From assembly GCA_024679065.1 (NCBI GenBank), contig JAGIQG010000009.1, forward strand, positions 102,672,001 through 102,736,000: a stretch of 64,000 bases of DNA, in the 5' to 3' direction. Below, one piece after another: positions 11,164 to 60,721 of this stretch (position 1 is the stretch's first letter; every line of letters begins with the position of its first letter). The translations under genes were made by a program, and so were the position numbers. The notes under the pieces were generated by a model, which did not search any database, was not told the origin of the DNA, and worked only from the letters and a program-made list of their open reading frames with translations. Source of the DNA: Sphyrna mokarran. Lineage: Eukaryota.

Positions 11164-11469
11164 ATGGAAGGAAGAACGTGTTTGGTGCCACTGGTTCCTC
11201 GATGTTACTGGACCCTAAATATGGAGCAGACCTGAACAACAGTGAGGTTATCTGGGAGTTCACTGACAGTGATGGAAAATGTGTTCCTATTTTAGATTAT
11301 GTACCAGGTTACCCGCAAGAGGAACCAAACAAAAACTTTGAATCACGCTTACTATTTATTACATCCAATGGGTCTCTGATGTTGAACAATTTAGAACCCA
11401 GTGACCAAGGTGTTTATACTGTCACTATAGGCAGAGGCTGGAAATGGAGCATCATTTTGAAACTCTTAA
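11164..11469 (+). CDS. Gene A IgV exon (no B-F disulfide)
   Basis: tttatcag|AT...TTA A|gtaagt, phase 1-1, 306 bp; GRKNVFGATGSSMLLDP..IWEF..SRLLF..NGSLMLNNLEPSDQGVYTVTI; C-strand Trp and DxGxY present, canonical Cys absent; same length as paralogous exon 53722-54027. Confidence 0.92.
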
Positions 11470-17400: not shown

Positions 17401-20400
17401 TGTTCACAGTTTTAAAGTAATTAGATATGCACACATGTGCCATGAGACTAACAGTTGGAAGGTGATATTAGAATGGATAGTCCTCTGGCCAGCATGGAGA
17501 AGATGGTTGAATGGCTTTATTCTGTACACTATATTTATGTTTCTGTGGCAGAGAGGTGGAGCAGCAGAAGAATTAATGGAGGGAATTTTTTGCGTAACTG
17601 GCTGAAGGCACTAATGGTGGAGTGTAAGAGGTTGGAGAGGAGATGTTAGTTGTGGGGGCGGGGGGGACAGAACTGGGTGTCAGGAAAGGTTTGAAGGACA
17701 GAGGGAGTTTACAGAAATGGAGAGAGTCAAAAAAAATCATAAAAATCATTGAATCCCTGCAGTGCCATTTGGCCCATCAAGCCCCCCAGTCGAGCATCTT
17801 ATCCAGTCCCAACTCCCTATCCCTGTAACCCACACATTTGCCCCACTAATTCCCCCTAATCCACAAATCTTGGGACACTTAAAGGCAATTTAACATGGTC
17901 AACCTAATTAAGTAGTTGATGCGAAAACATTGAATGTATTCAAGAACAGGGAGATATAACACTTTGGGTGAATGAGACCAAAGGTTGGATTGAGTTGGAT
18001 GATCAGGCATGATTGTAGTGAATGGCGCAAAGGGCCAAATAGTCTCCTTCCACTCCTATCTTCTATATTTCTATGTTTCTCACCTGCACATCTTTGGACT
18101 GTGGGAGCACCAGGACAAAACCACACAGATATGGGGAAAATGTGCAAACTCCACACAGTGACCGAAGCCAGGAATCGAACCATTTAAACATTAGGCTGAG
18201 AGTTTTAAGCTCAAGATAATGAGGGTCAAGAGCAAATGCAAGTTGGTGAGGACAGGGTTGACATGTGACTAAGAGATGGTACAGAATAGAAAGTAAACTG
18301 CAAAGTTTCAGATGAGATGAAGGATGGGGTCTTCAGAAGCGGCAAACTGAGCATTAGAATAGCGGAGTCTGGGTATGAGAAAGATGATGGATGAGAATTC
18401 CAGCAGTAGTTAAGGGGAGACAATAGTGGTATTATCACTTGACTATTAATTCTGGGGACCAGGGTTCAAATCCTGCAGCAGCAAATGGTGAAATTTGAAT
18501 TGAATTAAAAAAAAATCTGGAATTAAGAATCTACTGATGATCATGAAGCATTTTCGATTATCAGAAAAACCCACCTAGTTCGCTAATCCCCGTCAGAGAG
18601 GAAATCTGCTCTCCTTACCTGGTCTGACCTACGTGTGATTCCAGAGTCTGAGGCTGAATCGGATCTGTCCTTAGGCAACTAGGGATGGGCAATAAATCTG
18701 ACTAACCAGTGGCACCCATGTCCGACCAATGAATAAAAAAAGCCAGGGTGATGTAGGAGCAGGGTCGGATAATCTTGGAGTTGGACAGCCCTTGTGATCA
18801 TATGAAGGCTTTTTAAGTTCACCTCAGCGTTGATGTGATAATGACGTATGTACCTGTGAAGGACATAGTTCTTATTAGTTGATTATATCAACGTAACGGG
18901 CAGGCTTTTACACACCTCCTGTCATGTTTCGCAGAGGCAGCCCACCATTAGCTTCCAGTCCCACCTTCCAGTCCCACCAGGGTTTCCAGTTCTACGCATC
19001 CCTCCCACCGCTGGGAAATCTGCAACAGGGGTTCGTCGTTCGGTGGGACTGGAAGACCCCACTGGTGAGGACGTTTGGAAAATTCAGTGAGCGGCAATGA
19101 CATTCTCGTGTTCAGACCTGTTAATCTGACCATTTTCCCTCTCCCCACAGAGCCACTGTCAGAGCCTTTCATCAATGTTACCTACGTGTATACCACCATC
19201 AACCTGACCTGTCTGGTATCTGCGGGGAAAGTGAGTTCCACTCAATGGCAGAAGAATAAGAAAATGATCACGAATACTGAACGCTATCGGTTGGTGCAAA
19301 ACAACAGCATGTTGATTATTTCACATGTTACATTATCAGACTGCGGAATCTACACTTGCACCATGGAGAATCCTGTTAGCCAGAAGAACGTTTCCTATCC
19401 TCTTGCAATTTACAGTGAGTCTTGTCTGTCAATCTATTCCATTTATTAGTCAAAAAGGATACAGTACCTAATATTCCTTACACCCTGCCTCACTAAAGAT
19501 GTTAATATTGGAAGAACTTTGTACATTTTCATGATAGCTAAAGGGGGGGAATAAAGATGGAAAATCACAAGTTTGTTTACCCGTATATTTCTAACCATTT
19601 ACCGGGAATGCCAAAGCGGAAAAACCATGTGTGAAAGTTTGCTGTACTGCCGGCCATGGGAATTGCAGTGGGGGGGGTATGGGGGTACGGGGGGTGGGGG
19701 GTGGGGTATCCATGCAGAGATCCGTTGGCTTCGGGTGAGATTTTCCAGTTTTGGGGTGAGCACGGCCAGAAAATCCCACCCCGTATTTCAATTTCACATT
19801 CCAGTGCAGACGGGTCACGCAATCGAGGAACTTGAACATTGGTGCGATATGATACATTCACCTCATCGTGGAGTTGAAGGAAAGCACAGTGGCACGGTGG
19901 TTAGCACTGCTGCCTCACCCTCTAGGGACCGAGTTAAATTTCGGCCTTGGGTGACTGTCTGTGCGGAGTTTTCCCCGGGTCTGCATGGGTTTCCTGCTCC
20001 TCTCATCCTCCAAAGATGTGTGAGTTAGGTAGGTCGGCCATGCTAAATTGCTCCGTAGTATTTGAGGGAATTAGCAGAGGAAATACGGGGATAGAGACTA
20101 TGCGATTGTTGTTGGTGTAGGATCGGTGGACTGAATGGCCTCAGTCTGCACTGTTGGATTCTATGATACGTTGTCGGCAATGAGAGTACTTTCGGCTGTG
20201 TTTAAGTAGATGGAAAGTCACCTTGAAGAGCTGGGGATGGACCCTGAAAGTTGCATTGGAGTCTATGGGGAGATGTTGTATCTCCAAAACTCAAGACCCT
20301 TGATAACTAAAGTGATAAGGAAGAGGAAACCTCAGCTTATAAACCCCTTTCAAAATAGCATAAGTTTAAACTACGTTCTTTATTTCAGGTTTGCATTTTT

Positions 20401-23400
20401 ATGCATCACCATTATCTATCACTGCACTGATAACTGTTGCTGTTGCCTTAATCTTGAAGATCATTTCCTTCTTGAAGGCCAGCTCAAGTAAGACAGATTT
20501 GCTTTTTGCAGAATTTGATGTTGAAACTTTAAAAATGTTACAATTTATTGATGGAGACTCTGTGAAAAATGTAAATATGATGCCTGTGTCATGTCACGTG
20601 CTCCTTTATATCATAGGATCCCTTCAGAAGGAGGTCATTCAGCCCATCAAGCTAGCAGTGACAACAAGCCCACCCAAGCCCTATCTCCGTAACCCCACAC
20701 ATTAACCCTGGGTAATTCATTTCATAGAATCTCAGAATTCTTCCAGTGCAGAAGGCTCCCATTGAGCCTGCACTGACAAACCCTGCTAAGGCACTATTCC
20801 CATAACACAACTTTTTTTTTAGAAAAAAATGGCCTCCTCCTACAGTGCAGGAGGAGGCCATTGGGCCCATTGAGTCTGCACCAACCACAATTCCAGCCTA
20901 ACTGTGTTGCCCACCATAACCCCATGTATTTACCCTGCTAATCCCCCTGACACAATGGGGCAATTTTAGCATGGCCAATTAACCTAACCCGCACATCTTT
21001 TGTAGTGTGGGAGGAAACCAGAGCACCCAGAGGAAACCCACACAGATACAGGGAGAAGTGCAGATTTCACACAGGCACTCACCCAAGGCTGGAATTGAAC
21101 TCAGTCCCTGGAACTGTGAGGCAGCAGTCCTAACCACTGTACCAGCTGAATATATAAATATTCTTGATTCAAATGATGTTAATACAAATTTTCTTATTAT
21201 TCCAGGCTGCAAGTTATTAGAAAATCTACTACAAATTGTGCAGTGTTTGTCTCTCATTGCCATCTCTGGATATTGGATATGGATAGGAGGTACTGGATGC
21301 TCTCCTGTTTCCTTATTTGCGGTTACTAATTATACTTCTACAACACACTAACTGCGTTCCAACGCAGTAAATACCAGTTTAATATGTTACAGACTGAGAA
21401 CTTGGATGAGCTCCAATCTTACCTTGCCAAACGATGAATTTAACCTCAATCAGTTGATTTGTGGACTGGAATCAAATTTTTTTTTGCAAAAGGTCCATTA
21501 AGTTTGGAAATTCTTTCAGAATTCCTTATGGTTCTAAAGAAATTGGAATCAACCGAATAATTTCCACTCATTCTCAATCTTGTGACCCCAGCAATTCCTG
21601 CAGAAATCTATCTATTTTTGACAATCTTCCCACATAAACACTCGTTGGCCCATTCTCCAAGCTTTGTAAAACTATCTCTGATGTTCATCAGCAAAGGGCA
21701 TAGAAACTAGCAGCACAATTAGCCATTCAGCCCTTCAATCCTACTCCACCATTAATTTTGATCATCAACTTAAATATCCGGCTCTCTCCGCCCCCCCCAT
21801 ATCCCTTGGCCTCTTTAGGCCCAAGAGCTATTTCTAAATTCTTCTTGCAATCACAAATGTTTTGGCCTCAACTACATTTTGTGTGGTAGTGAATTCCACT
21901 TATTCACCACGCTCTGGGTGAAGAAATTTCTCCTCACCTCAGTCCTAAAAGGTTTATCCGTTATCCTCAAACTATGATCCCCTACATCTGGATTCCCCCA
22001 CCATCAGGAACATTCTCTCTGAAATCTATCCTGTCTAGCCCTGTTAGAGCTTTATTGGTTTGTATGAGATCCCCTTTCATAGAAATTTATAAATTCCTAA
22101 CAGGATTAGACAGGGAGAATTCGGAAAGAATGATCCTATCTACTCCTACCAGCTCTGCCAGTCTGGCCATGCATGTTTCTGCTAGACCCATTTTAAATAT
22201 TTTCCGCAATTTTAATCCTTCTGCACTCATATTCAAATTGAGCCTTGAGGAATTGAACACTTCTTAAATGTGGAGAGTTCACACGTAACCCCATGTAATT
22301 GTGGCTTCATGACCTGTAGGGTTACAACCTCACTCCATATTAATGTACAGAATTCGATTGTTCATCAGTTATGTTGATCTGTCTCCATCTCACTGCGATC
22401 TGCTCTGGTCCTCACTGCTGGCCCCAAGCTTAGGAATTCTTGCAAGTGTTCCCCTAATTCCATTTCTGTGGCAGAGTAACCTGATTCCCACAGAGAATTG
22501 ACACAAACATCAATGTTCGAAGATGTTTTGCATTTACAAAGGCTCAAGAGAGAGGGGATGGGAGCATTGATCATGGAATCATATGGAATCCCTACAGTGC
22601 AGAAAGAGGCCATTCAATCCATCAAGCCTGCACCGATAAACAACCCTGTCCCCTTAACTCCACATATTTATCATGGATGGCATGATAGCACAATAGGGAG
22701 GCACAGTGGCATAGTAGTTATCACTGCTGCCTTACAGCACCAGGACCTGGGTTCAACTCCCATCTTGGGCTGTTGTCTGTGCAGAGTCTGCATATTCTCC
22801 CTGTGTCTGCATATCCTCCCCATGTTTGCATGGGTTTTCTCCGGGTACTCTGGTTTCCTTCCGCAGTCTGAAAGCCATGCTAGTTAGGTGCATTGGCCAT
22901 GCTAAATTCTCCCTCAGTGTACTGAGACAGGTGCTGGAGTGTGGTGACAAGAGGATTTTCACAGTAACTTAATTGCAGTATTAACGAAGCCTATTTGTGA
23001 CACTAATAGGTAAACTTTTTAAAAAACTTAAAAGTTTAATCCAACTTAGCATATCCAATCCTCCTAACCTGCACATCTTTGGACTGTAGGAGGAAAGCGA
23101 AGCATCTTGAGGAAACACACATGCAGACATGGGGAGAAAATACAAACTCCATACAGACACGCACCCAAGCCAGGAATTGAACCTGAGTCCCAGGAACTGT
23201 GATGCCCCAATGCTGGTTGTGACTGGATCAGCAATCCTGTGGGCTGGGATAATTTTCTGGTGATATAAATTCAAACTTCAGCTGGCATATTTAAATTTAG
23301 AAACTCGACAAATGAGGAGTAAGAAGTCAGACTTTGAAATGATGAACACGAGCTGATAGATAGTGTTGTAAAAACCCATCCAATTTATTTGGAAAGGAAA

Positions 23401-26400
23401 CCTTCCAGCCTTACCCAGTCTGGCTTACATATATCTCACAGACTAACAGAGAAAGGTGATTGACTCTTAATTGCTGTGAGAAATGGCTTAGCAAGCTACT
23501 TATTTCACCTGTTGATAATGGTGAAGCCATGGTTCACTATCACTTTCTCAATGGTAATTAGAATGGTAAGGCAAGCACTTATTGCCCAATGAAGCCTCCA
23601 TCTCCTGAATGAATGAATAAAAAATATTAATCCTTTACCATAATTGGCTTTGTCGTGTTAGTGTCCCCACATTGGTGTTTAGTTGAAATTGGGTGATATA
23701 AGATTGCGTTTTTAATCTTGCCTAAAAACCAGGTCTGAAATGCACCCATTTTCTTGCTCTTTCGGCACTTAGAATTTATTTCTTAAGATTGTGTCCCCTC
23801 TCTTTAATCATTGAATTCAGAAAGCTGAATTCGTACAATCCCATCCGAGACCAAAGGAGAATTCCATTCTCAGAGCTGCCAGTAAACTTCTGGCCAATAT
23901 GTTAAAAATTACTATTTGACATAGAGCAATTTTTATTTCACTCAGCTTTTCTCATCATTATAATCTTAAACTCTGATATAATTCTTGTGAAATACCTTTG
24001 CAACTTCACGTGCACCTTTATCATTTTTATAACTGGAGAAGTGAACAGTATTTGTTAAGTGTGGCATAATCAATGTTTGATAAGTTTCCCATAACATCTT
24101 GGTTGTTCAATTTTAACCCTCTGTAAATGGATCTCAGTTCAATTTTATTAACCTGCATCACTAGTTTTGATGATTTTTGTATACACGAAAATGTATAGTT
24201 TCTCCTGTATCCATTTATTTTCCAAACTTCCTTTCCATTCTGCGACTTGTTCCCTGATTTCAAATTATTTGAGTGTTGTTAAAGGCCGTATGAAAATCCA
24301 AATATTTCATCTCCTACCAACCCTAAGCAATACATGAAAGTCACTACCTCCCATTCTTTTCATGCCTCACATTCTTGAGAGGCGCGGTGGTAATGAATTT
24401 GCAAATGGCAGATATTCTCTCATCTACAAAATTATGTAATTTTATTTATCTTTTGCTTTTTTAATAGGACCTGACAAAAAAATGGTGTTCGTATTGGTGT
24501 TCTTCTGTCTCTTGGCAATACCATCCGTATTTTTGACTTGTAACAGATTAATCATGACTCTGAATGCCACTTGTAAGTTTCAAGATGTTTTTATATCCAG
24601 TATGCAAAAAGCTGATGGTCAATGGTGAGGGGAGGATTGGTGAGATTTGGATCCTATGTGTTAGTCCTCTTGGGTATCAACAATCTAAAGGCACTCAGTC
24701 GACTCCTAACACAAACAACGCTGAACATCATGCATCCAATGCAAGGTCTTTAATTATACAAGGAGAACTCTCCACCAACACTAGATAGCGGAGCAGTTCT
24801 TAGGTTATAGAGAAATAGCTCAGCAGTTACAAATCAGTAACGAGAGAATTTTCACATCTTTCATTTGAAATACATATCCCCCACTGATATCATAGGCCTT
24901 TTGCGCTTTCTTATCCAATAGAAAACTAACCCTTTATTAGCATAATATGTCCCCATTTCTTGCTATTTGGAAATCACCATGATAACTTGTTTCTTTTTCA
25001 TCCTACTATCATGCAGTGTTTATGGAAGAAGGTTTTAGACACACTCACTTATCCTGTTTACATCAGCGTTGGTCTTATTGAAGGCATAACTAAAGGCTGT
25101 GTTTGGCTAATAATCATTTTCCGTTACTGAACAGAGTATTTTTTTGACAATTACGGAACTTTAATTTTCACAGTTGCTGTAACCTAACTTCCACATATGT
25201 TGGCACAAATTTTTGTGCTCTCTAATTGCATGTCATTCCTTCCCAGCTCGCTTTCTGATGTTAATGGACACAGTAGCTGCAACAGGTGAATTCAGTGTGT
25301 TTTGTACATCAGTGTTCCTGTTTGTGAAACCAAAGCTTCAAGCTGGTGAGTGGTCAGTGATAAAATAGGAGCCAGCAAACTAATTCTGAATGTTACATCG
25401 GATCAGGAATTGTCTGATTAGGATTGTGTCATTTTTGCTACATTGTACATTGGAAACTTTTAAACAATTGATGATTCTAGTGCATTTGACCCATTGTGTC
25501 TGTGCTACTTCAGTTTAATCACTCTACTCTGCTGTCTCCTCACACCCTGACTGAGCATTCTGCCTCAAATACTTGTCCAAATTTCCTTCAATATATACAA
25601 TGGTTCCCAGTTCAACAGCTCCCTGTGGGAAAACATTCTATCCTCATGGAATTAATGAATCCCTACAGTACAGAAGGAGGCCATTTGGCCTCTCAAGTCC
25701 AGACTGACAACAATCCCATCCAAGCCCTATTCCTGTAACCTGATAATATTTACCCTGCTACTCCCCCTTACACTGGGGTCAATTTAGCATGGCCACTCAA
25801 TCTAACCCGAACATCTTTGATCTGTGGGAGGAAACGGTGACACAATGGTTAGCACTGCTGCCTCATAGTTCCAGGGATTTGTGTTCGATTCCCGGCTTGG
25901 GGGGTCACTGTCTGTGTGGAGTTTGCACATTCTACCTGCGTCTGCGTTTGAATTTCCATGGGGTGCTCCCACAGTCTGAAAGGAGTGCAGGTTAGATTGA
26001 TTGGCCATGTTAAATTGCCCATTGGTGTCCTGGGATGTGTGGGTTAGATGGATTAGCGGGGTAAATATGCAGGGTTTCAGAGATAAGGTCTGGGTGTGAT
26101 TGTCGTTGGTGCAGGGTCAATGGGCCGAATGGCTGCCTTCTGCACTGTAGTGTTTCTATGATTCTAAACCAGAAGAATGGCACCCAGAGTAAACACATGC
26201 ATTCGTAGACGCGGGGAGACAAACACAGATAGTGACCCAAGGCCAGAACAGAACCCAGGTCCCTGGTGTTGTAAGTCAGCAATGCTAACCACTGTGTCAC
26301 TGTGCCACCACAACCACTTGTGGAAATAAATTTCTCCTAAACTGCCTTTTTAATTCGAGTGGCAAAAATGAATATTTTGAATTACGTTGAGAATACAGTA

Positions 26401-29400
26401 CAGAAACAGACCATCTGGGCTGAAATGGTCTCATTCATTACAAATGCTTCAGTCAAATCTCTCTTCATCCTTTATCAGCTAACTGTTACAGCATAACCCT
26501 TCCATTCCCTCTCACGTGGTTAACCTAAACTTTTTCCTAAGTGTTTTTGATATTGTTCACATTGATGCATTCACTTCAAAATATGACTAAAGAGGTTTCT
26601 TGGGAATTGCATGGAGCCAGAGAGATGGGCAGAGTATTAAATGAATACTCGGTGGATGATGGGATCAAAAAGAAGGAGGTAATAGGGTTCTTGAGAAACA
26701 TTAAGATAGACAAGTCCCCAGCATCTCATGAGTGAGGCAAGGGAGTAAATGTTGGGGCCTTAAAAGAAATCTTTGTATCTTCACTGGCTACAGGGGAGTT
26801 CCCAGAGGATTGGAGAATAGCCAATGTTGTTCATTTGTTAAGAAGGATAACAAGAATAATCCAAGAAATTACAGGCCGGTGAGCCTTACATCTGTCGTAG
26901 GAAAATTATCGGAGAGGCTTTATTCCCACTTGGAAATAAGTGGATGTATTAGTGGGGGGCAACATGATTTTGTGAGGAAGAGATTGCGTCTCATTAACTT
27001 GATTGAGTTTTTTGAGGAAGAGATGAAAATGATGAGGGTAGGGTGGTGGATGTTGTCTATATGGACTTCAGTAAGGCCTTTGACAAGGTCTCTCATGGCA
27101 GACTGGTGCAGAAGGTGAAGTTGCTTGGGATCAGAGATGAGCTGGCAGGGTGTATACAAAACTGGGTTGGTCAAATAAGACAAAGGGAATGGAGGACTGT
27201 GACAAGTGGCATTCCCCAAGGATCAGTGCTGGGAACTTTGCTGTTTGTAATATATAAATGATTTGGGGGAAAATGTAACTGGATTGGTTAGTAAGTTTGC
27301 GGATGACATAAAGGTTGGTGGATTTGCGGATAGTGATGAGGACCATCAGTGGAATTAGCAGGATATAGATCAGTTGGGGACTTGGGCGGAGAGATGGCAG
27401 TTGGAGTTTAATCTGGACAAACGTGAGGTAATGCATTTAGGAAGGTCTAATACAGATAAGAAATATACAGTAAATGGCAGAACCCTTAAGAATATTGATA
27501 GGCAAAGAGACCTATATGTACAGGTATACAAATCACTGAAAGTGGCAATGCAGTTGAGAAGGTAGTCAAGAAGGCATATGGCATGCTTGCTTTCATCAGC
27601 TGGGGTATTGAATTTAAAAATTGGCAAGTTATATTACAGCTTTATGGAAACTTAGTTCAGCCACACTTGGAATATAGTGTTCAATTCTGGTCGCCACACT
27701 ACCAGAAGAATATGGAGGCTTTGCAGAGGGTAGAGAAAAAATTTAATGCCCTCTGTACCAGGTTACCTGGTATGGAGGGCATTAACTATGAGGAGAGGTT
27801 GGAGAAACTTGGTTTGTTTTCACTGGAACGACGGAAGCTGAAGGGAGATCTGACAGATTGAGAGGCATGGACAGAGGGAATAGAACATAGAACATTACAG
27901 CGCAGAACAGGCCCTTCGGCCCTCGATGTTGTGCCGACCAATTAAGAAAAAGCAATGACCCTCTAACCTAAACCATTCCCTTTTCATCCATAAACCTATC
28001 CACGGACCTCTTAAACGCCCCCAAACTTGGCGCATCTACAACTGCAGCAGGCAGGACATTCCATACCCTTACCACCCTCTGGGTAAAGAACCTACCTCTG
28101 ACATACGTCCTAGAACTACCACCCCTTAATTTAAAGCTATGTCCCCTCATGCTAGCTTTCTCTATCCGAGGAAAAAGGCTATCACTGTCCACCCTATCTA
28201 AACCTATAATCATCTTGTATGTTTCAATAAGGTCTCCTCTTAGCTGCCTTCTTTCTAATGAAAACAACCCCAAATCCCTCAGCCTCTCCTCATTAGACCT
28301 TCCCTCCATACCAGGCAACATCCTGGTAAACCTCCTCTGCACCCTTTCCAATGCCTCCACATCTTTCTTATAATGTGGGGACCAGAACTGTACACAATAC
28401 TCCAAGTGCGGCCGCACCAGAGTCCTGTACAGTTGCAACATGATGTTGCGGCTCCAAAATTCAATCCCCCTACCAATAAAAGCCAAGACTCCGTACGCCT
28501 TCTTAACAACCTTATCGACTTGATTGCCAAGTCAGAAGCATTTGCCCAGAATGGAAGAGTAAATTACTCAGGGGCATTGGTTTAAGATGCGAGGGGCAAG
28601 GTTTAAAGGAGATATACGAGGCAGATGTTTTATACAGAAATTATGGGTACCTGGAACTCATTGCCGGGGGCGGTATTGGAAGCGGATGTGGTAATGACTT
28701 TTAAAGGGCACCTTGACAAGTACATAAATAGAATGGGAATAGAGGGATATGGTCCCCAGAAGGATAGGGAGTTTTAGTTAAGTCGGGCAACATGGTCAGT
28801 GCAGGCTTGGAGGGCCGAAGGGCCTGTTCGTGTGGTGTAATTTTCTTTGTTCTTTCAATTCCCTGTTCAATTTCTTGGCGACTAACTTCTATTGATGGAT
28901 TCCATTTGCTCTGCTTGACCTGTGGAGCCATTCCCTCTGTGTCTAACCTATAAAAACCTATCATCGTTTTAAAGGCTTCTTTTGAGGTCACTCCCTCAGT
29001 CTCTTCTTTTCAATAAAAGAGAGACTAATGTTACTCACTTCCCAAATGAAAGCCAGAGGGGGACCCACAGCTTGTCATTCCTATCCCCTGCATTTCAGAC
29101 TGTTGGATCATTTAGCTTTGGCGAATACAGGGAGTGTGAAAGCAGCTGTGTATGGTTCCGAGACCTCAATTTTAGAGCTGGTGTCTTATCATAAAAAAAG
29201 AGACACAAAATGAAGCGTTGGCTCCAGGCCACTCAGCAGTTTGTTCAATTGGTGAACACCGAGGATCAAGAGGGCATAAGAGTAGACATGATGGGCCAAA
29301 ATTGCCTCCTTCAGCACCATAACAATTTTGCGGACCATTGCTAATGCAAAGTGGGAAGAACACTGAGCAGGAAAAAATACCCAATTCAAAAAGGAATGAC

Positions 29401-32400
29401 ACTTGGAAGTTGTTATTTTCTAGTTTAAGCTTAAGTTTATTTATTAGTGTCACAAATAGGCATACATCAACACTACCCTGTGAAAATCCCCGAGTTGCCT
29501 CAATCTGGTGCCTGTTTGGGTACGCTGAGGGAGGATTTAGCCCAGCCAATGCAACTACCCAGCATATCTTTAGAGTGTGGGAGGAATCTGGAGCACCCGG
29601 AGGAAACCCATACAGACACGGATAGAACGTGCAGATTCCGTACAGACAGTAGCAAGTCGAATCCGGATCCCTGGTGCTGTGGGCAGCAGTGCTAACCATT
29701 GTGCTGCCATGCCACCTTGGTTCGAATACAACCAATGGGTGCGATCTTATCACTCATTCATGCCATGCTCCAGCTGCGAGGGAGATGGATAATTTGGCGA
29801 CAAGCCAAATCTCTGTTCACTGCAGTGGGATTGGGGAATCCCGCTGGCAAGAATAATTGGAAGATTCCAGACTCTGGTTTAAGCAAATGTATTCCTGACA
29901 GAGTTATTACTACTTCGGCACCAGATTAATAGAGCATGTTCTGATGCAGTGCATTTTGGACAATGAATTCTATTCATGTAACGTATAATTATATTTTATT
30001 AAATACCAACCCTGCTATTATATATCAACCTTTTTGAATGAACTGTGTTGTGTTATATCATGTCTTATCTCAGTTTTAACTATATTATGATAAGCATTAA
30101 GTTGTGTGCTAATTGGAACTGCACTTTGTAAATTTATATGATGTTATCTATTGCAGGTAATGAATGTGAACCAGTCGACAATCTACAAACAAATCTAATT
30201 TTTACTGCAGTGGTGCCATTCATTTTAGTTTTTATTCTTTTTGCTAGTTGCATCATGTGTAAGTAATGTTGATGTGGTTACAGATTGTATCAAAACTATT
30301 GTAATGCATGCAAAGGACTTTGATTGAGTGAGATTTTCTACTTCACTCACTCTCCACTACAACAGCAGTGTATATTATACCATATTTGCTAACTCATATC
30401 ACTTTGTGTACAATGGCTACCAATACATGTGACAACAATAAATTAAATCAAATCTCTGCCAACCAGCAACCTGGCCTTGGTCCCCAACTGAACTTCATGA
30501 TCCCTGTTGAACTTTGGACTTCTCTCCATGCCACTCACCATCCCCCTCTCCCCCCTGCCTTCTCTCCTGCCACCCCCACCACCCAATTCCCATTCTATTC
30601 TCATTCTGTCTTTTCCAGTCTTATTTTGCTCCTCACTCCCCCCCCTTAATCTGTTGTACTTGATTTCGTTTCCACTTGAAGAATTCGTCTGTCAAACATG
30701 GTACACCCATTTTCTTGTTTTGACATCTCTATCTCCTTCATCACCCATGGATGATGACGTGACGTTCACACCTTGTCAGAACGTCCTTACCCTGTTCATC
30801 TCAAACACCTCTTCCTAAAGATCACCCCTTGTTCCATTGCAATGTTTCCTATCTGTTCTTGGTTCCATTCTACCCTGTCTAGTTCCAATCCCATCACATT
30901 GAAGTTCCAATTTGGAAATATTTTATTCAATTGCTCTTTGCTCTTCTCCATTACTAAACCAGACCTAATGATATGAAAGCCTTTTAAAAGTCTTTTTTAC
31001 TCCATTCTTAAAGTTCCAAATCCTATGCTCAGAGTGGACCTGGTATTCCAAAATCCATTCCTTTCTTGCTCCAAAAACCAAATTCCAATTCCAATTGAAT
31101 CCGACTCACGATGTCCAAAAGAGAGGAAAACAAGATCCAAGCTGATGAGATAAGGCACTGCACCCCTTCTTGGCTTGATCTGATGCTTGATCTAGCCAAA
31201 AGGCCAAGAAGCCTGAAGATATGGTATCATACGATATGAAAGGCTTATAATGTGAAAGGCAAGAACCTTATAATATAGTCATTCTTACCCAACTGTTCCC
31301 ACAAAGGCACTTAGGGAGGAATTTTCACCTCCCATCTGTCAAGGGAAACCTACGCAGACACAGGGAGAATATGCAAACTCCACACAGACTGCCACCCAAG
31401 GTTGGAATTGAACCTGTGTCCTTGGCATTGTGAGACAGCGTGCTAACTATTGTGCCACACTGGTTGCTGACCCTAAGACCAAAGCACGATATCCTCAAGC
31501 ATGGAAATGATGCTCATCTCTTAACAGTTTTTGTGAAATTAATTGGCTACTTTAGCTGAGGGATTGAAATAACTAGGCTAATAAATATAATGGAGTAAGA
31601 GAATTTCATATGACCTGTTCAGCTGGGTGGCGCAGTGGCACAGTGGTTGGCATATTGCCATATAACGCCAGGGACCCAGATTCAACTCCTGGCTTGGGTC
31701 ACAGTTTTTGCGGAGTTTACACATTCTGACTGAGTCTGCGTGGGCTTTCTCCGCGTGCTCCAGTTTCCTTCCACAGTCTGAATGATGTGCTGGTTAGGTA
31801 GATTGGCCGCTCTAAATTCTCCCTCAGTGCACCCCAATAAGCGATGGAGTGTGGCGACTAGGGGATTTTCACAGTAACTTCATGCCTACTCATGACAGTA
31901 ATAAATAAAACGTTAAAAATAACTTAAAACATAGTCATACTATATGGCAAAAATTAAAAGACAACTTGTTTTGTGTTTGAAAGAATTTATGGGCTGTTAT
32001 TTTAATAATCTTTTCTTTGAAAAACCTTTGCTCAGTTCATTCTGTCATTGACACAACTCGTCATATTTGTATGTTCACCACCAACAGATAGAAAATGGAA
32101 GACACGGAGAACTCAAACCCTAACTCCAAACCCAACTGTCAAAGAGGCGGATGAACGTGAATGTACTGTAAGTATTGGTTTAAATGCAGGTGGCAAGTTA
32201 GAAATGCATCTGGGTGTCTGAAACTTTGGTAAATGGACACTTCCCATGTTATTATAGTCCAGAGATGAAATTATGCTTTCATTTTGCTGTTAAAATGTAA
32301 TTTGTAAGGAAATATGGATGTGTTCCTGTATTGAGCAAAATGCATACCAATAGTGCTAGCTGCAGGCAGTACACCTCAGGAATTATTTTTCCTAAATTGT

Positions 32401-35400: not shown

Positions 35401-37027
35401 CGAGGAGAAAAAGTGAGACAGAAGTGCAGAAAATAGATTGAACACATAAAGGACCCTGTCAATTATGTTGAGAGGAATCTCGGTTGAGAACAAGTAAGAC
35501 AGATCATAGAAGAAGGCCATTCAGCCCATTAAGTCTGCACTAACAACAATTCCACCCAGGTCCTATCATCATAACCCAATGCATTTACCCTACTAATTTC
35601 CCTGACTCTAACAGACAATTGACCAGGTCAATCCATCTAACTTGTACGTCTTTGGAGCGCAGAAGGAAAACAGAGCACCCACATGAAACCCACACAGACA
35701 TGGGAAGAGACCAGAAGACCGAGACATTAACAGGTTTCAGACTTTTGAACGGACCTACCTCCACATTTAGTTGACCTTTCTCTATACCCTAGCTAAGACT
35801 GCAACATTGCATTCTGCACTCTCTCATTTCTTTCTATATGAATGGTATGCTTATCTGTATAGCGGACGAAAAACAATATTTTTTATTGTATGTTAATACA
35901 TGTGACAATAATCAAATCAAATCAACTCAGGTGTGACAGAGATGGAGAAACTAAGAGAATGGAATAGATTCCTGACAGGAACCTGGGTGTGAGCATAAAT
36001 CGTCAAAGTAGCTGTGAAAATCCATGGGCTTGTGAATGTTAGCTCATAGCCTATCTCCAGAAACAGATGTAGAGAAGCCAAGGAAAGAAAGGGATGGGTT
36101 ACTGATGGGTAACGTGAAGGTGAGACAAAAGTGTAAATTGGGGAAAATAAAGCCAATGAACTCTTCCAGTTCAAGGTGAGAGCAGCGAGAGACATTGGTA
36201 TATTTATCAGTGCACCAGAGAAGGAGGTGAGGAAAGGAGGCCTGAGTAGGACTGCAACAAGGAATGTCCCACCTATCCTTGGCAGGCACGGTTCAGACCC
36301 ATGCAAGTATCCGCACCTTGGAGGAAGTGCATGGATTGGAATGAGAAGTAATTGATGTGAGAATAAGCCCAACCAGGTGGAATAGGGTGATGGCAGTTGG
36401 GGACTGGTTGGTTCTCTAGTCAAAGAAGAAAAGTAGATCTGGTGGGCAGTGGAGGATTAATGAGATTGAATATTTGTAGTGAAAAGAATCATATAGTGCA
36501 AAAGGAGACCATTCATCCCATCAAGTCTGCACCAACCACAGTCTGATTGCAGCCCCATCCCCGTAACCCCAAGCATTTACCGCAGCCTGTCCCTTGACAC
36601 TAAGGGGCAATTTAGCATGGCCAATTCACCTAACCCGCACACCGTTTGGATTGTGGGAGCAAACCGGAGCACCTGGAGAAAACCCATGCAGATGCAATGA
36701 GAATGTGCAAACTCCACACAGCAATGACCCAAGTCAGGAATTGAACTTGGATCCCTGTGTTATGAGGCAGCAGCACTAACCACTGTGCCACACTGCTGCT
36801 CAGAAGAGTAAGGCTCCGAAAAATGGAGATTGTTGAAGCAACAAGGTGAGAGCGTCGGGATAGGAAGGCATCTGTTCACCATGTAGAAACTCACTGCAGC
36901 AATAGGTTTTCTGGGTCTCTTTTATTCAGCTGTTTCTGACACCTTTTTCTCTTTTGTTCCGTAGGAGCTGGTGGTGAAGAGTTGCTCTGAATCTGGTACT
37001 ACTGTTCCTGGTGCAGAAATTGCTTAA
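11164..37027 (+). CDS. Gene A: spliced IgV-IgC2-5TM membrane protein (HEPACAM/CD2-like ectodomain, CD47-like multi-pass domain); 9 coding exons plus an uncertain leader
   Basis: Exons 11164-11469, 19151-19414, 20389-20487, 21206-21289, 24468-24572, 25247-25345, 30157-30258, 32088-32167, 36965-37027 all have AG/GT boundaries with matching phases and join into one stop-free frame (1202 nt incl. TAA; about 415-427 aa depending on leader). Confidence 0.8.
12862..13170 (+). mobile_element. V-SINE subfamily with an alternative 3' tail
   Basis: Same head and core, but tail ..ttctccctc..ggcgccggagtgtg..gcagtgttaatgtaa..aataaataaac; also 22697-23020, 29430-29712 (-), 31625-31910, 38968-39242 (-), 39503-39800, 46242-46522 (-), 49425-49705, 57682-57968. 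Confidence 0.88.
13968..14360 (-). mobile_element. Rex1/Babar LINE 3' fragment
   Basis: KAASIIKDP..HSVFHLLPS, AATAAATCAAATC tail; related copies near 14780-14930, 35740-35920 (+), 51540-51770. Confidence 0.8.
15286..15640 (+). mobile_element. SacSINE1/DeuSINE-type SINE
   Basis: gtcactgga..ggttcaaatccca..agatggtgaaatttgaatt..gggaaggaaatct..gggatgggcaa; other copies 2716-2910, 18413-18740, 23360-23620, 34085-34290, 44925-45265 (-), 59208-59545, 62855-63185 (-). Family name assigned from memory. Confidence 0.75.
15724..15999. mobile_element. Penelope pLTR-derived inverted-repeat insert
   Basis: Arms approx. 15767-15866 and 15884-15999; decayed TSD caggtgtgatg / cagatgttatg. Confidence 0.8.
15910..15947 (+). 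ncRNA. Minimal hammerhead ribozyme motif with one core mutation
   Basis: CTCAT-CTGATGA-A-GGGG-TAAA-CCCC-GAAG-GC-TA-GTGGG; GAAA mutated to GAAG. Confidence 0.5.
16400..17160 (-). mobile_element. CR1 3' fragment
   Basis: KKAFGTLAF..LQLYKTLVRPHLE followed by CR1 3' UTR. Confidence 0.9.
19151..19414 (+). CDS. Gene A IgC2/I-set exon
   Basis: ccccacag|AG...TAC A|gtgagt, phase 1-1, 264 bp; PLSEP..INLTC..QWQK..NSMLII..SDCGIYTCTMENPVS; canonical C-W-C plus an extra Cys in DCG. Confidence 0.93.
20389..20487 (+). CDS. Gene A TM1 exon
   Basis: tatttcag|GT...TCA A|gtaaga, 99 bp; SLHFYASPLSITALITVAVALILKIISFLKASS. Confidence 0.85.
21206..21289 (+). CDS. Gene A TM2 exon
   Basis: ttattccag|GC...GGA G|gtactg, 84 bp; SCKLLENLLQIVQCLSLIAISGYWIWIG; the donor is weaker than the others. 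Confidence 0.72.
24468..24572 (+). CDS. Gene A TM3 exon
   Basis: gcttttttaatag|GA...ACT T|gtaagt, 105 bp; GPDKKMVFVLVFFCLLAIPSVFLTCNRLIMTLNAT. Confidence 0.8.
25247..25345 (+). CDS. Gene A TM4 exon
   Basis: ttccttcccag|CT...GCT G|gtgagt, 99 bp; SRFLMLMDTVAATGEFSVFCTSVFLFVKPKLQA. Confidence 0.78.
26590..28860 (+). mobile_element. Degenerate CR1 ORF2, interrupted by a younger CR1
   Basis: NYRPVSLTSVVGK, DVVYMDFSKAFDKVSH, HLEYSVQFWSP; the sequence resumes near 28531 after the nested insert. Confidence 0.92.
27881..28520 (-). mobile_element. Younger CR1 3' fragment, same subfamily as 1-1349
   Basis: 172-aa ORF very similar to 505-1257; TAGAACA tail repeats. Confidence 0.95.
30157..30258 (+). 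CDS. Gene A extracellular loop + TM5 exon
   Basis: tctattgcag|GT...ATG T|gtaagt, 102 bp; GNECEPVDNLQTNLIFTAVVPFILVFILFASCIM. Confidence 0.82.
31186..31212 (-). pseudogene. U2 snRNA 5' fragment
   Basis: Reverse complement GCTTCTTGGCCTTTTGGCTAGATCAAG versus U2 GCTTCTCGGCCTTTTGGCTAAGATCAAG (1 substitution, 1 deletion). Confidence 0.7.
32088..32167 (+). CDS. Gene A cytoplasmic exon 1
   Basis: caccaacag|AT...ACT|gtaagt, phase 1-0, 80 bp; YRKWKTRRTQTLTPNPTVKEADERECT; basic stop-transfer cluster directly after TM5. Confidence 0.72.
32448..33070 (+). mobile_element. CR1 3' fragment
   Basis: LQLYRALMRPHLEYYVQVWCP..LSYEERL. Confidence 0.9.
35180..36900 (-). mobile_element. Old Penelope-like RT remnant interrupted by SINEs and a Rex tail
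   Basis: PHLLLWCTD..ELEEFIGF..LTFTLPISNPSLSFLGFSTSVSGDRL resembles the PLE RT region (RYIDD..LTFT..LPFLD). Confidence 0.7.
36965..37027 (+). CDS. Gene A terminal coding exon
   Basis: Long pyrimidine tract ...cttttgttccgtag|GAG, phase 0; ELVVKSCSESGTTVPGAEIA-TAA; AATAAA at 38876 and 38952 downstream. Confidence 0.6.
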   Translation, partial: ELVVKSCSESGTTVPGAEIA

Positions 37028-47228: not shown

Positions 47229-47295
47229 ATGCCATTTAAAGGAAATAGAATGTTCGGCTTCTATCTTTTTGCTCCTACTTACTTCATTCTGATTG
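47229..47295 (+). CDS. Gene B leader exon
   Basis: MPFKGNRMFGFYLFAPTYFILI + G|gtaagt; hydrophobic, phase 1, perfect donor; which ATG is used is uncertain. Confidence 0.7.
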
Positions 47296-50200
47296 GTAAG
47301 TGTCTGGTACAATTAAGAATGCTTCAAATTTTATTTAGATTGTGTACGATTTGGTGGAACGATCTGGAATTTATGGTATGTAACAGAACCATCGTTTAAC
47401 AAAATTCATCAACACATTGCTCAATCGTGTTTGCGAATCAAATGAGAACTTTGTTTCATTTGCGTTTTGACGACAATTGAATTTGAAGAAGAAACAATAC
47501 TTTTCACTGTATTCCAATACATGTGACAATAATAAATCAAATCAAATTCCTGAAGCCTAAAAGAATTCTCTGGGGACACAGGTTAAAATCTGTGCAGGTG
47601 GCAGAACTAAATTCAATTGATTATTTTTTAACATCTGTAATTAAAAACTCGTCTCAGTAATTGTGACCTGAAACTATCATTGATTGTTGTAAAAACACTA
47701 AGTCCCATCATTGAATCGTAGCGTTCCTAGAGTACAGAAGAAGACTATTTGGTCTATCGAGCTTGCACCAACAATAATCCTACCCAGACCCTAACCTCAG
47801 GTATTTACCCATGACATGGAAGGGAAATTTAGCACCTAACCAGCATATTTTTCAGACTATGGGAGGAAACCGGAGCACCCGAAAGAAACTGACACAGCAG
47901 TGTTAATCACTGCCATTGTGCCATCCTGTCACATTAAACGTCACGTTAAAATATGTAAAATGCAGTGAATTTTTATTAAGTATTCAACAATTAATCAATT
48001 GCTTATATGTAATAGTTTAAACAATGTAATTACATTTTTTATATTGTCACTTTTCTTTTAGAGAAATTATTATCTCCATCTTTAGCTGCTGTAACACTGG
48101 AAGTGAATCAGAACAGTCTGAATGGAACTGTTGGTCAGTCCATGCTCCTATCCGCCTCATACACAGTCTCAAACTCAAACGGATATTTCAGGATCAAATG
48201 GCTCAAAGCTGAAACTAGAATTGTGGAATATAGATGCCTGTCAAAGACAGGCAACAAGCTCGCTGATTGCAATTATCGCTGGTCAGTACAAGATGACTAC
48301 AGATTTCGGACCGCCCTTTTTCCAGAGAATGCCTCATTGCTGCTGGAGTATTTGCAGCTTAACGATAGCAGGGTTTATGAATTATCCATTAGCCACTCAG
48401 CAGGAACAGAGATGGCCAAGTTTGTGTTAACAGTCAGCCCGTCTCCAGCTACAGAATTGGTAGGTACTTCTTCATGGATGTACTCAATTGTAAAGGCTAC
48501 TTCCAGCAATGATGTATTTATTGAATTTGCAGCGGATCCACATTAAGAATTTATTTCTTGCATTGAGAGCAATGCAAATCTTCTCTGCTTTGTAAAGATT
48601 TTTGGTTTCAGTTTGCAGAATGTCTGTATAAGTTTATTTAATATGTGGTGAGAACATTATATGAGACATGTCAAAATCCAACTACATTTATACAGTGCTT
48701 TAATAGAGTAAAATATCCCAAGTGGTTTTACAGGAGGAATTATCAAACACAATTACCTAAGGATATATTAAATGTATAGCCACCTAAAGCTTGGCCAAGG
48801 GGATAGATTTCAAGGAGGGTCTTAAGGGAGACCATCAGACATAACAGCAGAAATAGGCCATTCAGCCCATTGAGTCTTAGCATCTACCCTGTCAAGCTCT
48901 CTGAGAATTCTATCTGTTTTGATAAGGTCGCTTCTCATTCTACTAAACTCCAATGAGTATGGGCTCAATCTACTTGCCTCACCTCTACTTGGTGGTCTGA
49001 CTAGTGCCTTGTGCAGATGAGAGAGATAGAAAGGCATTCAGGATTAAGGAAGAAAGCCTGGAACTCGGCACCTGAAGGCATTGTTGCCACTGGCTGAAGG
49101 GTTAGAATCGGGTCTGATGAATAGGGCAGAATTGGAGAGCTGTAAATGTCACATCTTATCCATTTTAATCTACTGACCTGATTGGAAAACTATAAGGGGT
49201 CTGGTCGTTTGTGGCCAGATCACTGGATTTAATTCACAATATTCCTCCATCATTCAATTCTTTGTTGATGTATTCAATTCAATTGTAGGAAATGAGCGCG
49301 TTTGTACTAACAGATAAAATACTATTCAGGTCTGATATTAGAAAGCATATTGCCTTAAGAATGTAACTAAACTGAAATTGTTTTTGGTTAGGAGTGAAGG
49401 AAAAAGTCTGATATCCTTCCAGAGATGGCATGGTGGCACAGTGATTAGTAGAGCTGCCTCTCAGCGTTCGGGATCCAGGTTCGATTCCCAGCTTGGGTCA
49501 CTGTCTGTGTGAAGTCTGCAAGTTCTCCCATGTCTGTCTGGATTTCCTCCAGGTTCTCCGGTTTCATCCCACAGTCCGAAAGATGTGCCATACTAAATTC
49601 CCTTTCAGCGTACTCGAACAGAGTGCGGCGACTAGAGGTTTTCACAGTAACTTCATTGCACTGTTAATGTAAGCCTACTTAAGACACCAATGAATAAAGT
49701 TTAAACAAGCACAGTTTGATACTGTAATGGGGACAGTGGGTTTCTATGGATGAAAGGCTAGAAACAACTCAAAATGAATCACTGATTTGATAATTTTACA
49801 GAATAAAAATGCCTTCTGCTGTAACTAATATAGAGCCATTCAATCTTCCTCAGAAGACAACTGTCTGTATCTCTGTGGCCTTGTACTAACTAATCACTAA
49901 AATTGAACAGAAAACTAAATGCACTTCTTTAGGTTTTGCATGAGAAGACAAGAAGTTCACAACTTAAAAACTGCCACATCTGATACTAGGGAGTGAACTG
50001 AGTTATGGAACAAAGAACAAAGAAGAACAAAGAACAAAACAGCACGGGAAACAGGCCCTTCGGCCTAACGAGCCCGCGCCGCCACCCCAATGTTCCCACC
50101 TCTACCCGTGACCCCTGTCCATGTTTATAGATCTATGGATTAAAAACCAAATTTGAGACAATTTAAGGAGAATTTGTTTTGCCAATTAGCCTAAGAGCAC

Positions 50201-58458: not shown

Positions 58459-60721
58459 GGATAATCCTGCCCTATGTCACTGTCACCAAAAGTCAAAATG
58501 CATTCATTAAAATAGATCTCTCATGGCGTTGCTTCATTTTTATTTAATATTCATTAATGAGATGTGGGTGTCATTGGCTAGGCCAATATTTACAGCCCAT
58601 CCTTAATTTTTTCCACAAAGGTGTAGTGTGCTGCCTTCTTGAACAACTGCATTCTCCATGTTGCGTGAATATCAACAGTGCTGTTAGGAAGGAAATTCCA
58701 AGATTTTGACCCCCATCAACGATGAAGGAATGGCAGTTTAGGTTTAAATCGGGATGGTTTTATGAGGATTAGATTGCTAAGATATCGTTTCAGACCACAA
58801 ACTCTTTGGCCAGGCTTTTCTGGTCCCACTTGCCCAGGGACTGGAAATTTCCACTCGGTCAATGAACCTTTTGCCAGTCAGTCAAATTATCCTTCCTACT
58901 TGTGACAAATCCTGATGCAACAGGAAGATTTAGGCCTCAAATTTATTGGAGATGGCACAAGCAGCAAAAGACAGGAATTTAAGGATCTTTAATGGTTCTG
59001 ACATAAAAAAAGATGCCCTTAATGAGAGTTCATGTTATTTTTCCAATCTATAATCTGTTGTAAGAATCAAAAGGGTGAATTTTACAGCCCTTCCCAGCAG
59101 ATTTTCCAGTCCCAGCACAAATCAGTGGATTTTGAACTGTCCAGTGCCACCATAACAGGACTATAACATTTTCCCCAAAGAGAAATATATATCAAGTAGC
59201 TGTCTTAGAGGAGGCAGTGGTGTAGTGGTATTGTCACTGGATTAGTAATTCAGAGACCTAGGGTGAGGCCCTGGGGATCCAGATTCAAATACTACCATGA
59301 CAGATGGTGAAATTTGAATTCAATTTTTAAACTCTGGGATTAAAAGTCTCATGATATCAAACCTGTATTGATTGTCACAAAAACCTATCTGGCTCATGAA
59401 TGTTTTTTAGGGAAGGAAATGTGTTGTTCTTACCTGGTCTGGCCTCTAGGTGAATCCAGACTCAATGATGTGGTTCACTCTTAACTGCCCTCAGGGATGG
59501 GAGTTATGGGAAGCCAGCAGTGCCTACATCCCATAAATAAAAAAAGACTATAGTGAGTTTTTCAGCAAATATGCTGTCTAAAACTTAAATTTATGAATGT
59601 GTGTCACTATATCAATTAGAGATAAAGATTATGAGTCATCAGAGCCTGCAGCTTATGCACAAACAGTGTAACTGTTGCCAAGTTTTTTTTCTCTTGGTTG
59701 TACTTTGCATCATGCGTAAGTATTGATCACGGTGTTTCAACACTTGTTTAATGGATACAAACTGCTGTTTGAAGAAATTGTCGCTAATGTGATTTTTTTT
59801 CTCCTTTTGTTCACTATTTGGGACTATTGGGTGGGCATATTGGGATATTCTGTGCTTCTAGGCAGAACTATGTTCTTTTTTCAGATTAGAAACGTGACAA
59901 GCTTTAGGTGTGAAATCTTGTGATGTTGTTTTGTTTTCTGGCACACGAAAGTGGGAAATTTTGGTCAAAATTCTTCATGCTAGAACCTGTTCTTAGAATT
60001 GTATAAAATGAGTGAAAAATATCTTTGACAGCCTGGCAATTCTACAGGGACAAGTTAAGAATTAGGAGGCAGAGTTGGGTAAGATACACAAATAGATATT
60101 GGCGGGGCTGGAAGATCCTGAGATTGGCCAACGGAGAGCTGGAAAATATGCCCTGGGGAAGAGGGGAAGTGTAAGAAAATTCCATTATTTTATTTTACCC
60201 TGGCAACTTTCTTTGTATTTCAACAGTGACTGACAAAGCCATCTTCTGACTGACATGCCCAGCCTGTCCCCACACAAAAATATCACCAAGTTAAAATGAT
60301 TTGTTACTTGGAGATGGATTAGATTGTGGCATTGTTCTCATGTGTCTGCTGCACTAGTTCTTCTTGGTGGTCGGGGGTTTGAAGATTTGGAGAGTTAATT
60401 TTCTGTATGGTATGTTTAGGCGTTGCTGTACACTGTTGGTGGAGGGAGTGGAGGTTTAAGTTGCCAATGAAAGGAGAGCTTTGGATTGTCTTGTATGTTT
60501 GAGCTATTGCTGCACCCATCTAGGAAAGTGAGGAGTTTTGCACACCTTGTACATGACAGAGAGGTATTGGTGAGTCAGGAAGTGTATTACTTGCTGAGGA
60601 ATGCCCAGTCTCTGACCTAACGTACCAAGGAATATCTGTATTTATATGGCTGACCCATGGTCTACAACATCCCCTCATGCTCCCATGAACGACATGAGCA
60701 GGAATCCCTGGCTTGTTTGTG

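Follow-up and report, generated by a model that had tools for sequence, protein, structure and literature searches.

Gene A and its predicted protein

The DNA analysed here is a stretch of 64,000 nucleotides from Sphyrna mokarran (the window; positions 102,672,001 to 102,736,000 of contig JAGIQG010000009.1, assembly GCA_024679065.1), the + strand of which carries two paralogous immunoglobulin (Ig) genes, here called gene A and gene B. The protein of gene A is predicted to have two Ig domains (an IgV and an IgC2) and five transmembrane (TM) helices, and the subject of this analysis is a putative disulfide bond (tether) between an extra cysteine in the E-F loop of the IgC2 domain and a cysteine in the loop that precedes the fifth helix. 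Both cysteines had been pointed out in a preliminary description of the sequence (as SDCGIYTC in both paralogues and as GNECEP ahead of TM5), and both are indeed present, the first in the IgC2 exons of gene A (19342-19344) and gene B (55709-55711) and the second at the opening of the last TM exon of gene A (30165-30167).

The model of gene A comprises nine predicted exons between 11164 and 37027, with GT-AG at all junctions and one open frame of 398 residues, and its signal-peptide exon lies some 4.9 kb upstream of the window. The IgV and IgC2 exons are followed by five short phase-1 exons, each with one hydrophobic helix, and by two exons for the tail. The annotated LOC144497662 of Mustelus asterias matches this model exon by exon (74.5% identity over 415 columns). 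The exons and the two cysteine codons are as follows.

11164..11469, + strand: gene A IgV exon of the CD2/SLAM/CEACAM type, without the canonical disulfide (sequence, Pfam, homologues)
19151..19414, + strand: gene A IgC2/I-set exon, with the canonical Cys at 19210 and 19357 (sequence, Pfam)
19342..19344, + strand: extra E-F-loop Cys, predicted to anchor the tether on the Ig side and 95% conserved (sequence, alignment)
20389..20487, + strand: gene A TM1 exon, of which a longer form is annotated in Mustelus; donor predicted (sequence, homologues)
21206..21289, + strand: gene A TM2 exon, carrying a near-invariant Trp (sequence, alignment)
24468..24572, + strand: gene A TM3 exon, beginning with a conserved Gly (sequence, alignment)
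25247..25345, + strand: gene A TM4 exon with the first half of the second outer loop (sequence)
30157..30258, + strand: gene A TM5 exon, which also completes the second outer loop; in single-pass paralogues its homologue is the stalk-plus-TM exon (DNA alignment, sequence)
30165..30167, + strand: loop Cys before TM5, predicted to anchor the tether on the membrane side and 97% conserved (sequence, alignment)
32088..32167, + strand: gene A cytoplasmic tail exon 1 (sequence, homologues)
36965..37027, + strand: gene A cytoplasmic tail exon 2, up to the stop codon (sequence, homologues)

The tail of gene A is about 20 residues shorter than that of the Mustelus orthologue, due to an insertion with a stop codon, and a Y-x-E-L-type motif found in several homologues at the junction of the tail exons (32088-37027) has Cys instead of Tyr in both gene A and the Mustelus orthologue. 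The IgV domain of gene A holds an unpaired Cys (11280-11282) that is absent from the Mustelus orthologue and could permit covalent dimers; as a partner in the tether it was rejected, since it is private to gene A among the aligned rows.

Conservation, joint loss and predicted location of the two cysteines

For the conservation of the two sites, 59 of the 109 proteins then collected were aligned (37 effective sequences at 80% identity), leaving out most exon-skipping isoforms, near-duplicates, a single-pass protein and models without an IgC2. Five of the 59 rows lack the last exon, so that 54 are informative for both cysteines. Both are present in 51 of these, neither in two and the loop Cys alone in one, while no row has the Ig Cys alone. 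The pattern that the preliminary description had named as contrary to a bond (DCG kept, loop Cys lost) is thus absent from the 54 homologue rows and is seen in gene B alone, where the exon is damaged. The larger, redundant set of 124 fetched proteins gives a similar picture, with both cysteines in 102 and neither in six (all lamniform sharks); the rest consist of two whale-shark isoforms and three single-pass Mustelus proteins without the Ig Cys, three proteins without the IgC2 and eight without the last exon. Again, the Ig Cys is never accompanied by a substituted loop Cys. The three Mustelus proteins retain the stalk Cys (i.e. the Cys ahead of the single helix), displaced by a short insertion.

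Weighted by sequence, Cys occurs at the E-F site in 95% and at the loop site in 97%, compared to 76% for the Asp and 83% for the Tyr of the surrounding D-x-G-x-Y-x-C motif. The loop Cys ranks second in conservation among the residues of the membrane region, whereas the Cys columns on the inner side are only 23-53% conserved, and of the 54 rows with a residue at the matching x position of the V domain, none has Cys. Co-conservation of DCG with a CxP motif, proposed beforehand as a check, holds for the cysteines but not for the proline, which reaches only 64%; CxP was accordingly rejected as a conserved motif, the conserved element being the Cys. DCG by itself is frequent in the repeats of the window and is uninformative outside an Ig exon.

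The two rows with neither cysteine are a lamniform pair (basking shark and white shark). Conservation in the other rows reaches 90% or more in 33 columns, and the two of these that have changed in both lamniform sharks are precisely the two cysteines, which had been named by the preliminary description before this comparison. The chance of such a pick is P = 0.002 (0.002-0.008 across four thresholds). Co-conservation and co-loss fit an interchain bond as well as an intrachain one, and the two cysteines might instead make covalent homodimers or heterodimers of paralogues. Stalk-Cys dimers are common among Ig receptors, and genes that have the loop Cys alone would be explicable by self-pairing across chains. 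However, two independent self-pairing cysteines would not be required to disappear together, as they did in the lamniform sharks, and in the single-pass paralogues the two are some 25-30 residues apart and would be adjacent by Ig geometry. Interchain bonding therefore seems rather improbable.

With regard to location, a first AlphaFold2 run on 13 sequences (mean predicted local distance difference test, pLDDT, 52.7; predicted template-modelling score, pTM, 0.29) was not used. With the 59-row alignment, the Mustelus orthologue was modelled at a mean pLDDT of 78.9 and a pTM of 0.60, with five helices (residues 221-249, 257-289, 293-314, 325-357 and 367-400 in Mustelus numbering) for which pLDDT is mostly 80-89. 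In this model, helices 4 and 5 are joined by the loop that carries Cys361, the loop Cys. The charges follow a positive-inside pattern, in which Lys and Arg accumulate behind helices 1, 3 and 5 but not behind helix 2, with means of 2.5, 4.3 and 3.8 for the inner loops and tail compared to 0.4 for the first outer loop, while the second outer loop is net neutral. The helices and the charge pattern together place the Cys361 loop outside, so that gene A is predicted to have its N-terminus out, its C-terminus in and both cysteines on the outer side. The E-F Cys (Cys195) stands immediately before strand F (196-203), facing the end of strand G (208-215), and is a few residues from TM1 (221). It would be situated at the membrane-facing pole of the Ig domain, because G, the hairpin partner of F, ends at 215 and helix 1 starts six residues later. 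When the IgC2 and the TM domain were folded as two separate chains, with the alignment not used, the score was 0.03.

Alternatively, the two cysteines could be conserved separately and remain unbonded, for example with the loop Cys cytoplasmic and acylated (if the helix count were wrong) or with the E-F Cys buried. The hydrophobicity of TM2 and TM4 of gene A is moderate (19-residue means of 1.6 and 1.4), and several genes retain a lone Cys, both of which would suit such a situation. Against this stand the five long, well-modelled helices and the charges that fit an outer placement, the use of the same exon start in single-pass paralogues (where it is necessarily an extracellular stalk), the specific lamniform co-loss and the much weaker conservation of cysteines on the inner side, which make separate conservation very unlikely.

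Following these results, it is quite likely that the E-F-loop Cys of gene A forms an intrachain disulfide with the Cys of the outer loop before TM5, since the two are co-conserved from sharks to tetrapods, were lost together in one lineage and are both predicted to be outside. In this respect the preliminary description stands, while its equation of the bond with that of CD47 needs to be qualified (see below).

Paralogues, gene B and the proposed gain and loss of membrane exons

The genome (2.77 Gb) was searched with profiles and with a simple exon finder on fetched stretches; exon calls in divergent paralogues are heuristic. Related IgC2 exons cluster on the contig of the window (C1548) at 102.2-103.1 Mb and 113.0-113.9 Mb, and on contig C771 at 123.1-123.4 Mb. 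Eighteen genes have the E-F Cys; for two of these the last exon was not found, and 15 of the other 16 have a Cys before the last helix, the exception being gene B. Twelve of the 15 are multi-pass, and in each of these the Cys is encoded by the fourth codon of the last exon for a helix. The other three are single-pass, namely gene F at 102.93 Mb (with a five-TM-exon sister at 102.41 Mb), one gene on contig C668 and one on C871. Six genes without the E-F Cys have an identifiable TM exon, and the stalk Cys is missing in three and kept in three. The association between both cysteines is nominally significant (Fisher p 0.046), for genes that are related rather than independent. Three Ig genes with neither E-F Cys nor TM exon found, as well as two more without the E-F Cys that were not followed, are not counted. 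One of the exon scans demanded an early Cys and was rerun unfiltered on seven genes; in the four genes whose last exon came from the filtered scan, the same exon was the last or only candidate.

The exons attributed to gene B are the following.

47250..47295, + strand: candidate signal-peptide exon of gene B (sequence; assignment tentative)
48062..48463, + strand: candidate first IgV exon of gene B, divergent; membership proposed from its phase (sequence)
53722..54027, + strand: gene B IgV exon, paralogous to 11164-11469 (sequence, profile search)
55518..55778, + strand: IgC2 exon of gene B; its E-F Cys is at 55709-55711 (sequence)
59622..59715, + strand: damaged last-TM exon of gene B, in which Tyr (59630) replaces the stalk Cys and a stop (59669) precedes the helix (alignment)

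The V exon at 48062-48463 has two Cys close together in its C-C' region and is either a part of gene B or of a separate gene.

The IgC2 of gene B groups with that of gene A (support 94/85), and its DCG had been taken to predict a multi-pass domain downstream. This prediction fails: no TM1-4 exon was found in the 30 kb that separate the IgC2 exon from the next gene, on either side of the damaged last-TM exon that follows the IgC2 and has lost the Cys. Nor does it hold more generally: three single-pass paralogues carry both the E-F Cys and the stalk Cys, so what the Ig Cys predicts, to judge from the paralogues, is a Cys ahead of the last helix and not a multi-pass domain. The damaged exon (59622-59715) aligns with the last-TM exons of genes A, C and D, splice sites included. 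Because 13 reads of one independent DNA sample match a 501-base stretch here at 99% or more, two to three of them covering the altered Tyr and stop codons, an assembly error is unlikely, though thinly excluded; among the assembled contigs of run X1 none matched this exon. An alternative acceptor two bases upstream would give an open exon of 96 bases with a short hydrophobic end and a weak donor score, the frame of which agrees with the paralogues in the last residues only. Gene B thus reads most likely as a decaying or secreted copy, and since its last-TM exon is damaged, it is weak as evidence against the bond.

At the DNA level, the last TM exon of gene A aligns with the sole TM exon of its single-pass neighbours. 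Because the last TM exon equals the stalk-plus-helix exon of these neighbours, the simplest history would be one of insertion, in which a local bond between E-F loop and stalk, as in the single-pass relatives, was the starting state, and a cassette of four phase-1 one-helix exons, placed between the IgC2 and stalk/TM exons, made the bond long-range. With an even number of helices, gain or loss of the cassette would leave the reading frame, the sidedness and the bond unchanged. Of the two halves of this history, loss of the cassette (in genes B, C, D and F) appears better supported than its gain.

Several observations weigh against a conserved bond in gene A and against this history. The proximity of the two cysteines rests on hairpin geometry, in a model of the Mustelus orthologue rather than of gene A itself; the lamniform co-loss is a single evolutionary event; and the exon calls in divergent paralogues are, as noted, heuristic. 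Gene B has the E-F Cys without the loop Cys, albeit with a damaged exon. In gene E (C1548:102.86 Mb), which keeps the loop Cys and five apparently intact TM exons, Gly stands at the E-F site and the IgC2 offers no other Cys in its stead. The single-pass genes C and D have the stalk Cys but not the E-F Cys, gene C with two further additional Cys in its IgC2. The loop Cys alone is likewise kept by a whale-shark gene (P0032/P0110), with P0032 having a Cys in the A'-B region instead of the E-F Cys. As for the history, 20 of the 47 inner branches of the IgC2 tree are open, which leaves the direction of cassette gain or loss unfixed, and the single-pass genes of the cluster sit amid multi-pass ones and resemble secondary losses. 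Since gene E, genes C and D and whale-shark P0032 all keep the loop Cys without the E-F Cys, the loop Cys seems to be the more constant partner, whereas its Ig-side counterpart is open to loss or perhaps to replacement.

A number of further observations were made on the paralogues. Gene D (C1548:102785847-102800560; L017-L019) has a frameshifted V exon, no E-F Cys and the last TM exon only, and is likely a pseudogene; the annotation of P0033, the Mustelus protein that resembles it, includes several TM exons. The multi-pass Ig genes at C1548:113.0-113.9 Mb and C771:123.1-123.4 Mb (L057-L072, L093-L108, L115-L126) make up a second, divergent group; they share the two Cys and have several phase-1 TM exons, and the TM profile of the first group misses them. 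A five-TM paralogue at C1548:102484318-102484608 (L004, L034) has Tyr for the canonical B-strand Cys of its IgC2 and keeps the E-F, F-strand and loop Cys. At C1548:102654269 (L044), a partial duplicate of a last-TM exon, without its Cys-bearing start, lies about 11 kb downstream of the intact copy. An extra exon of 30 codons after TM2, with a Cys at its start and a weak similarity to the TM4 exon (E 0.015), was found at C1548:102635467-102635556 (L042) and in proteins P0008, P0013, P0014, P0021 and P0047. Where this exon is present, the A' region of the IgC2 contains an additional Cys as well: of 95 proteins identified by a sequence pattern, five have both, 89 neither and one the A' Cys only. 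Possibly these two cysteines form a second tether, or else their pairing is a coincidence of one clade.

In the remainder of the window, LINE-type (long interspersed nuclear element) reverse transcriptase fragments and many short interspersed repeats of 150-300 bases occur at 1-1300, 26680-27860, 32440-33070, 63290-64000 and elsewhere; the frame near the window end is presumably of Penelope-like type. Local inverted duplications are present at 43560-43730 and 43900-44240.

Relation to CD47 and to CD2/SLAM-like proteins

As described in PMC8410850 and PMC10902115, the disulfide of CD47 connects C15 with C245 of the mature protein (C33 and C263 of the precursor), i.e. the Ig domain with the loop before helix 5, giving two anchor points that set the orientation of the Ig domain, and removal of the bond lowers ligand binding and signalling. 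PMC8410850 calls CD47 the sole five-pass immune receptor, with a membrane fold unlike other proteins, and states that reptiles and birds possess CD47 separately. In gene A, the IgC2 would similarly be held on the helix bundle at two points, through its link into TM1 and through the disulfide near TM5. By analogy with CD47, such a hold could fix the tilt of the IgC2 and thereby couple ligand binding at the tip of the IgV to the bundle.

Like CD47, the 'don't eat me' marker that binds SIRP-alpha, and the poxvirus CD47-like proteins, gene A combines an Ig ectodomain with five predicted helices, a short tail and a conserved Cys before helix 5. The claim that its tether is the same as that of CD47 therefore stands for the membrane side, where the Cys is in the equivalent loop, but not for the Ig side, where it is in a different loop of a different Ig type: in the gene A family it lies in the E-F loop, five residues before the F-strand Cys, and in CD47 it precedes the Cys of strand B by eight residues (33 vs 41). 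A Cys in the A' region is present in only a subset of family members. Furthermore, the family has two Ig domains (a V without disulfide, then a C2) as opposed to one IgV in CD47, and consists of multigene clusters with both single-pass and multi-pass members, unlike CD47. In CD47, each helix is encoded by one exon, and the gene adjoins IFT57. In this genome, IFT57 maps to 51.3 Mb of contig C771 and the window to C1548, and no Ig-plus-TM exon series was found in the 160 kb on the 3' and 40 kb on the 5' side of IFT57, which is a weak test for short exons. The SWF linker and GLG motif of CD47, as given in PMC8410850, are absent from the family alignment, the shared element being a Gly at the start of helix 3.

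The CD47-type IgV domain (PF08204) matches 10 of the 59 members, at best with E 4.4e-4, while the CD47 membrane domain (PF04549) matches none of nine TM regions at E up to 10. A search of PDB sequences with the TM profile gave no CD47 chain. The fold searches listed none either, but Ig domains took up all four lists, so that these bear on the ectodomain only. The TM profile, built from nine membrane regions, retrieved 27 proteins in 1.84 billion; the 26 that were looked up by name are unnamed or Ig-named proteins of sharks, rays, turtles and a caecilian, and none is CD47. Because Ig number and type, the position of the Ig-side Cys, linker motifs, sequence match and gene position all differ, the protein of gene A would be CD47-like in architecture but falls outside the CD47 family by these membership tests, as far as sequences can tell.

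Whether the family could nevertheless be a deep homologue of CD47 (a sister or ancestral type), having inherited the tether while the Ig-side Cys moved between loops, is a separate matter and compatible with the bond. The shared layout of Ig domain, five helices and a Cys in the second outer loop would fit this, as would the whale-shark member that swapped its E-F Cys for one in the A'-B region. So would the conserved Gly atop helix 3, which may be compared with G191 of CD47 (PMC8410850). In this shark genome, two Pfam searches for CD47 gave one PF04549 match with stops (E 0.96) and one weak PF08204 match in a long open frame elsewhere; together with the search beside IFT57 no CD47 gene was found, by what are weak tests, and a match to the BBX family was rejected, being on another contig. 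On the other hand, the failure of PF04549 on all nine TM regions, the lack of CD47 among the PDB matches and among the TM-profile matches looked up by name, a V plus C2 ectodomain of CD2/CD48 type and the separate CD47 of reptiles and birds (PMC8410850) all argue otherwise, and deep homology is considered unlikely.

The ectodomain itself most resembles that of CD2/SLAM proteins. Its best structural matches are CD58 (Z 14.8, root-mean-square deviation (rmsd) 2.8, 167 aligned residues), a CD48 chimera (Z 14.3, rmsd 3.2, 174 aligned) and NTB-A (Z 13.9, rmsd 3.2, 172 aligned), with many other Ig proteins within 1-2 Z of these; the top match in Foldseek is CEACAM1b, and CD2 is also among the best fold matches. 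Assignment to CD2/SLAM is thus a matter of resemblance, shared features being the V domain without canonical disulfide followed by a C2 and the tandem gene clusters. CD2/SLAM proteins (CD2, CD48, CD58, NTB-A) and CEACAM1 are single-pass or anchored by glycosylphosphatidylinositol, whereas gene A has four extra helices, although some of its paralogues are single-pass. CD2/SLAM tails have immunoreceptor tyrosine-based switch motifs or proline-rich motifs, while the tail of gene A has no Tyr past the membrane edge. Chicken chB6 (Bu-1) is another CD2/SLAM-like protein with two Ig domains, described in PMC11882424 as occurring in birds and reptiles without a clear mammalian homologue. As a type I single-pass protein with a proline-rich SH3-binding tail (same source), it is unlike gene A, and chB6 was rejected as the identity of the family on the basis of this description. 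Many automatic names of homologues derive from HEPACAM and HEPACAM2, which have a V plus C2 ectodomain and are single-pass; the gene of this genome that we take to be HEPACAM-like, from its motif, is on another contig and has neither Cys.

Members of the family were found in several shark orders, two rays, a caecilian, many turtles, tuatara, alligator, tinamou, ducks and goose, with names that are all automatic or 'uncharacterized'. Searches retrieved two proteins with the IgC2 exon, 13 with the Mustelus protein and 44 with a turtle member, in addition to the 27 of the TM profile; mammals and bony fish were not among the matches of these few and word-limited searches. Pfam finds only Ig domains in the members (V-set in 56 and I-set in all 59 of those aligned), and a structure-atlas search gave no usable match for a turtle TM region and Ig clusters only for the whole protein. 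No description of the family was found in the literature searched, the coverage of which largely excludes subscription journals. For proteins P0007, P0011, P0012, P0019, P0027, P0033 and P0035, isoforms are annotated that skip one TM exon, which would flip the sidedness of everything downstream.

Taken together, these data may be read as a second ancient five-pass Ig family of jawed vertebrates, ranging from sharks to birds, not found in mammals here and independent of CD47. A four-helix cassette would have entered a CD2/SLAM-like stalk that was already closed by a disulfide, after which the cassette came and went while the bond stayed, and the result converged on the tether of CD47. For this combined reading the chances seem evenly balanced. 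It is the type of ectodomain that, by analogy, would suggest an immune role.

An expanded family with the layout of CD47 and an apparently separate solution for the tether would provide a comparison for the respective roles of the helix bundle and the disulfide, with the single-pass and five-pass sister genes that share the same cysteines, as well as the lineage that lost both, as natural controls. An exon cassette inside a disulfide loop is moreover a concrete and testable route to the origin of a five-helix architecture, and, if true, it would mean that such an architecture can evolve in one step.

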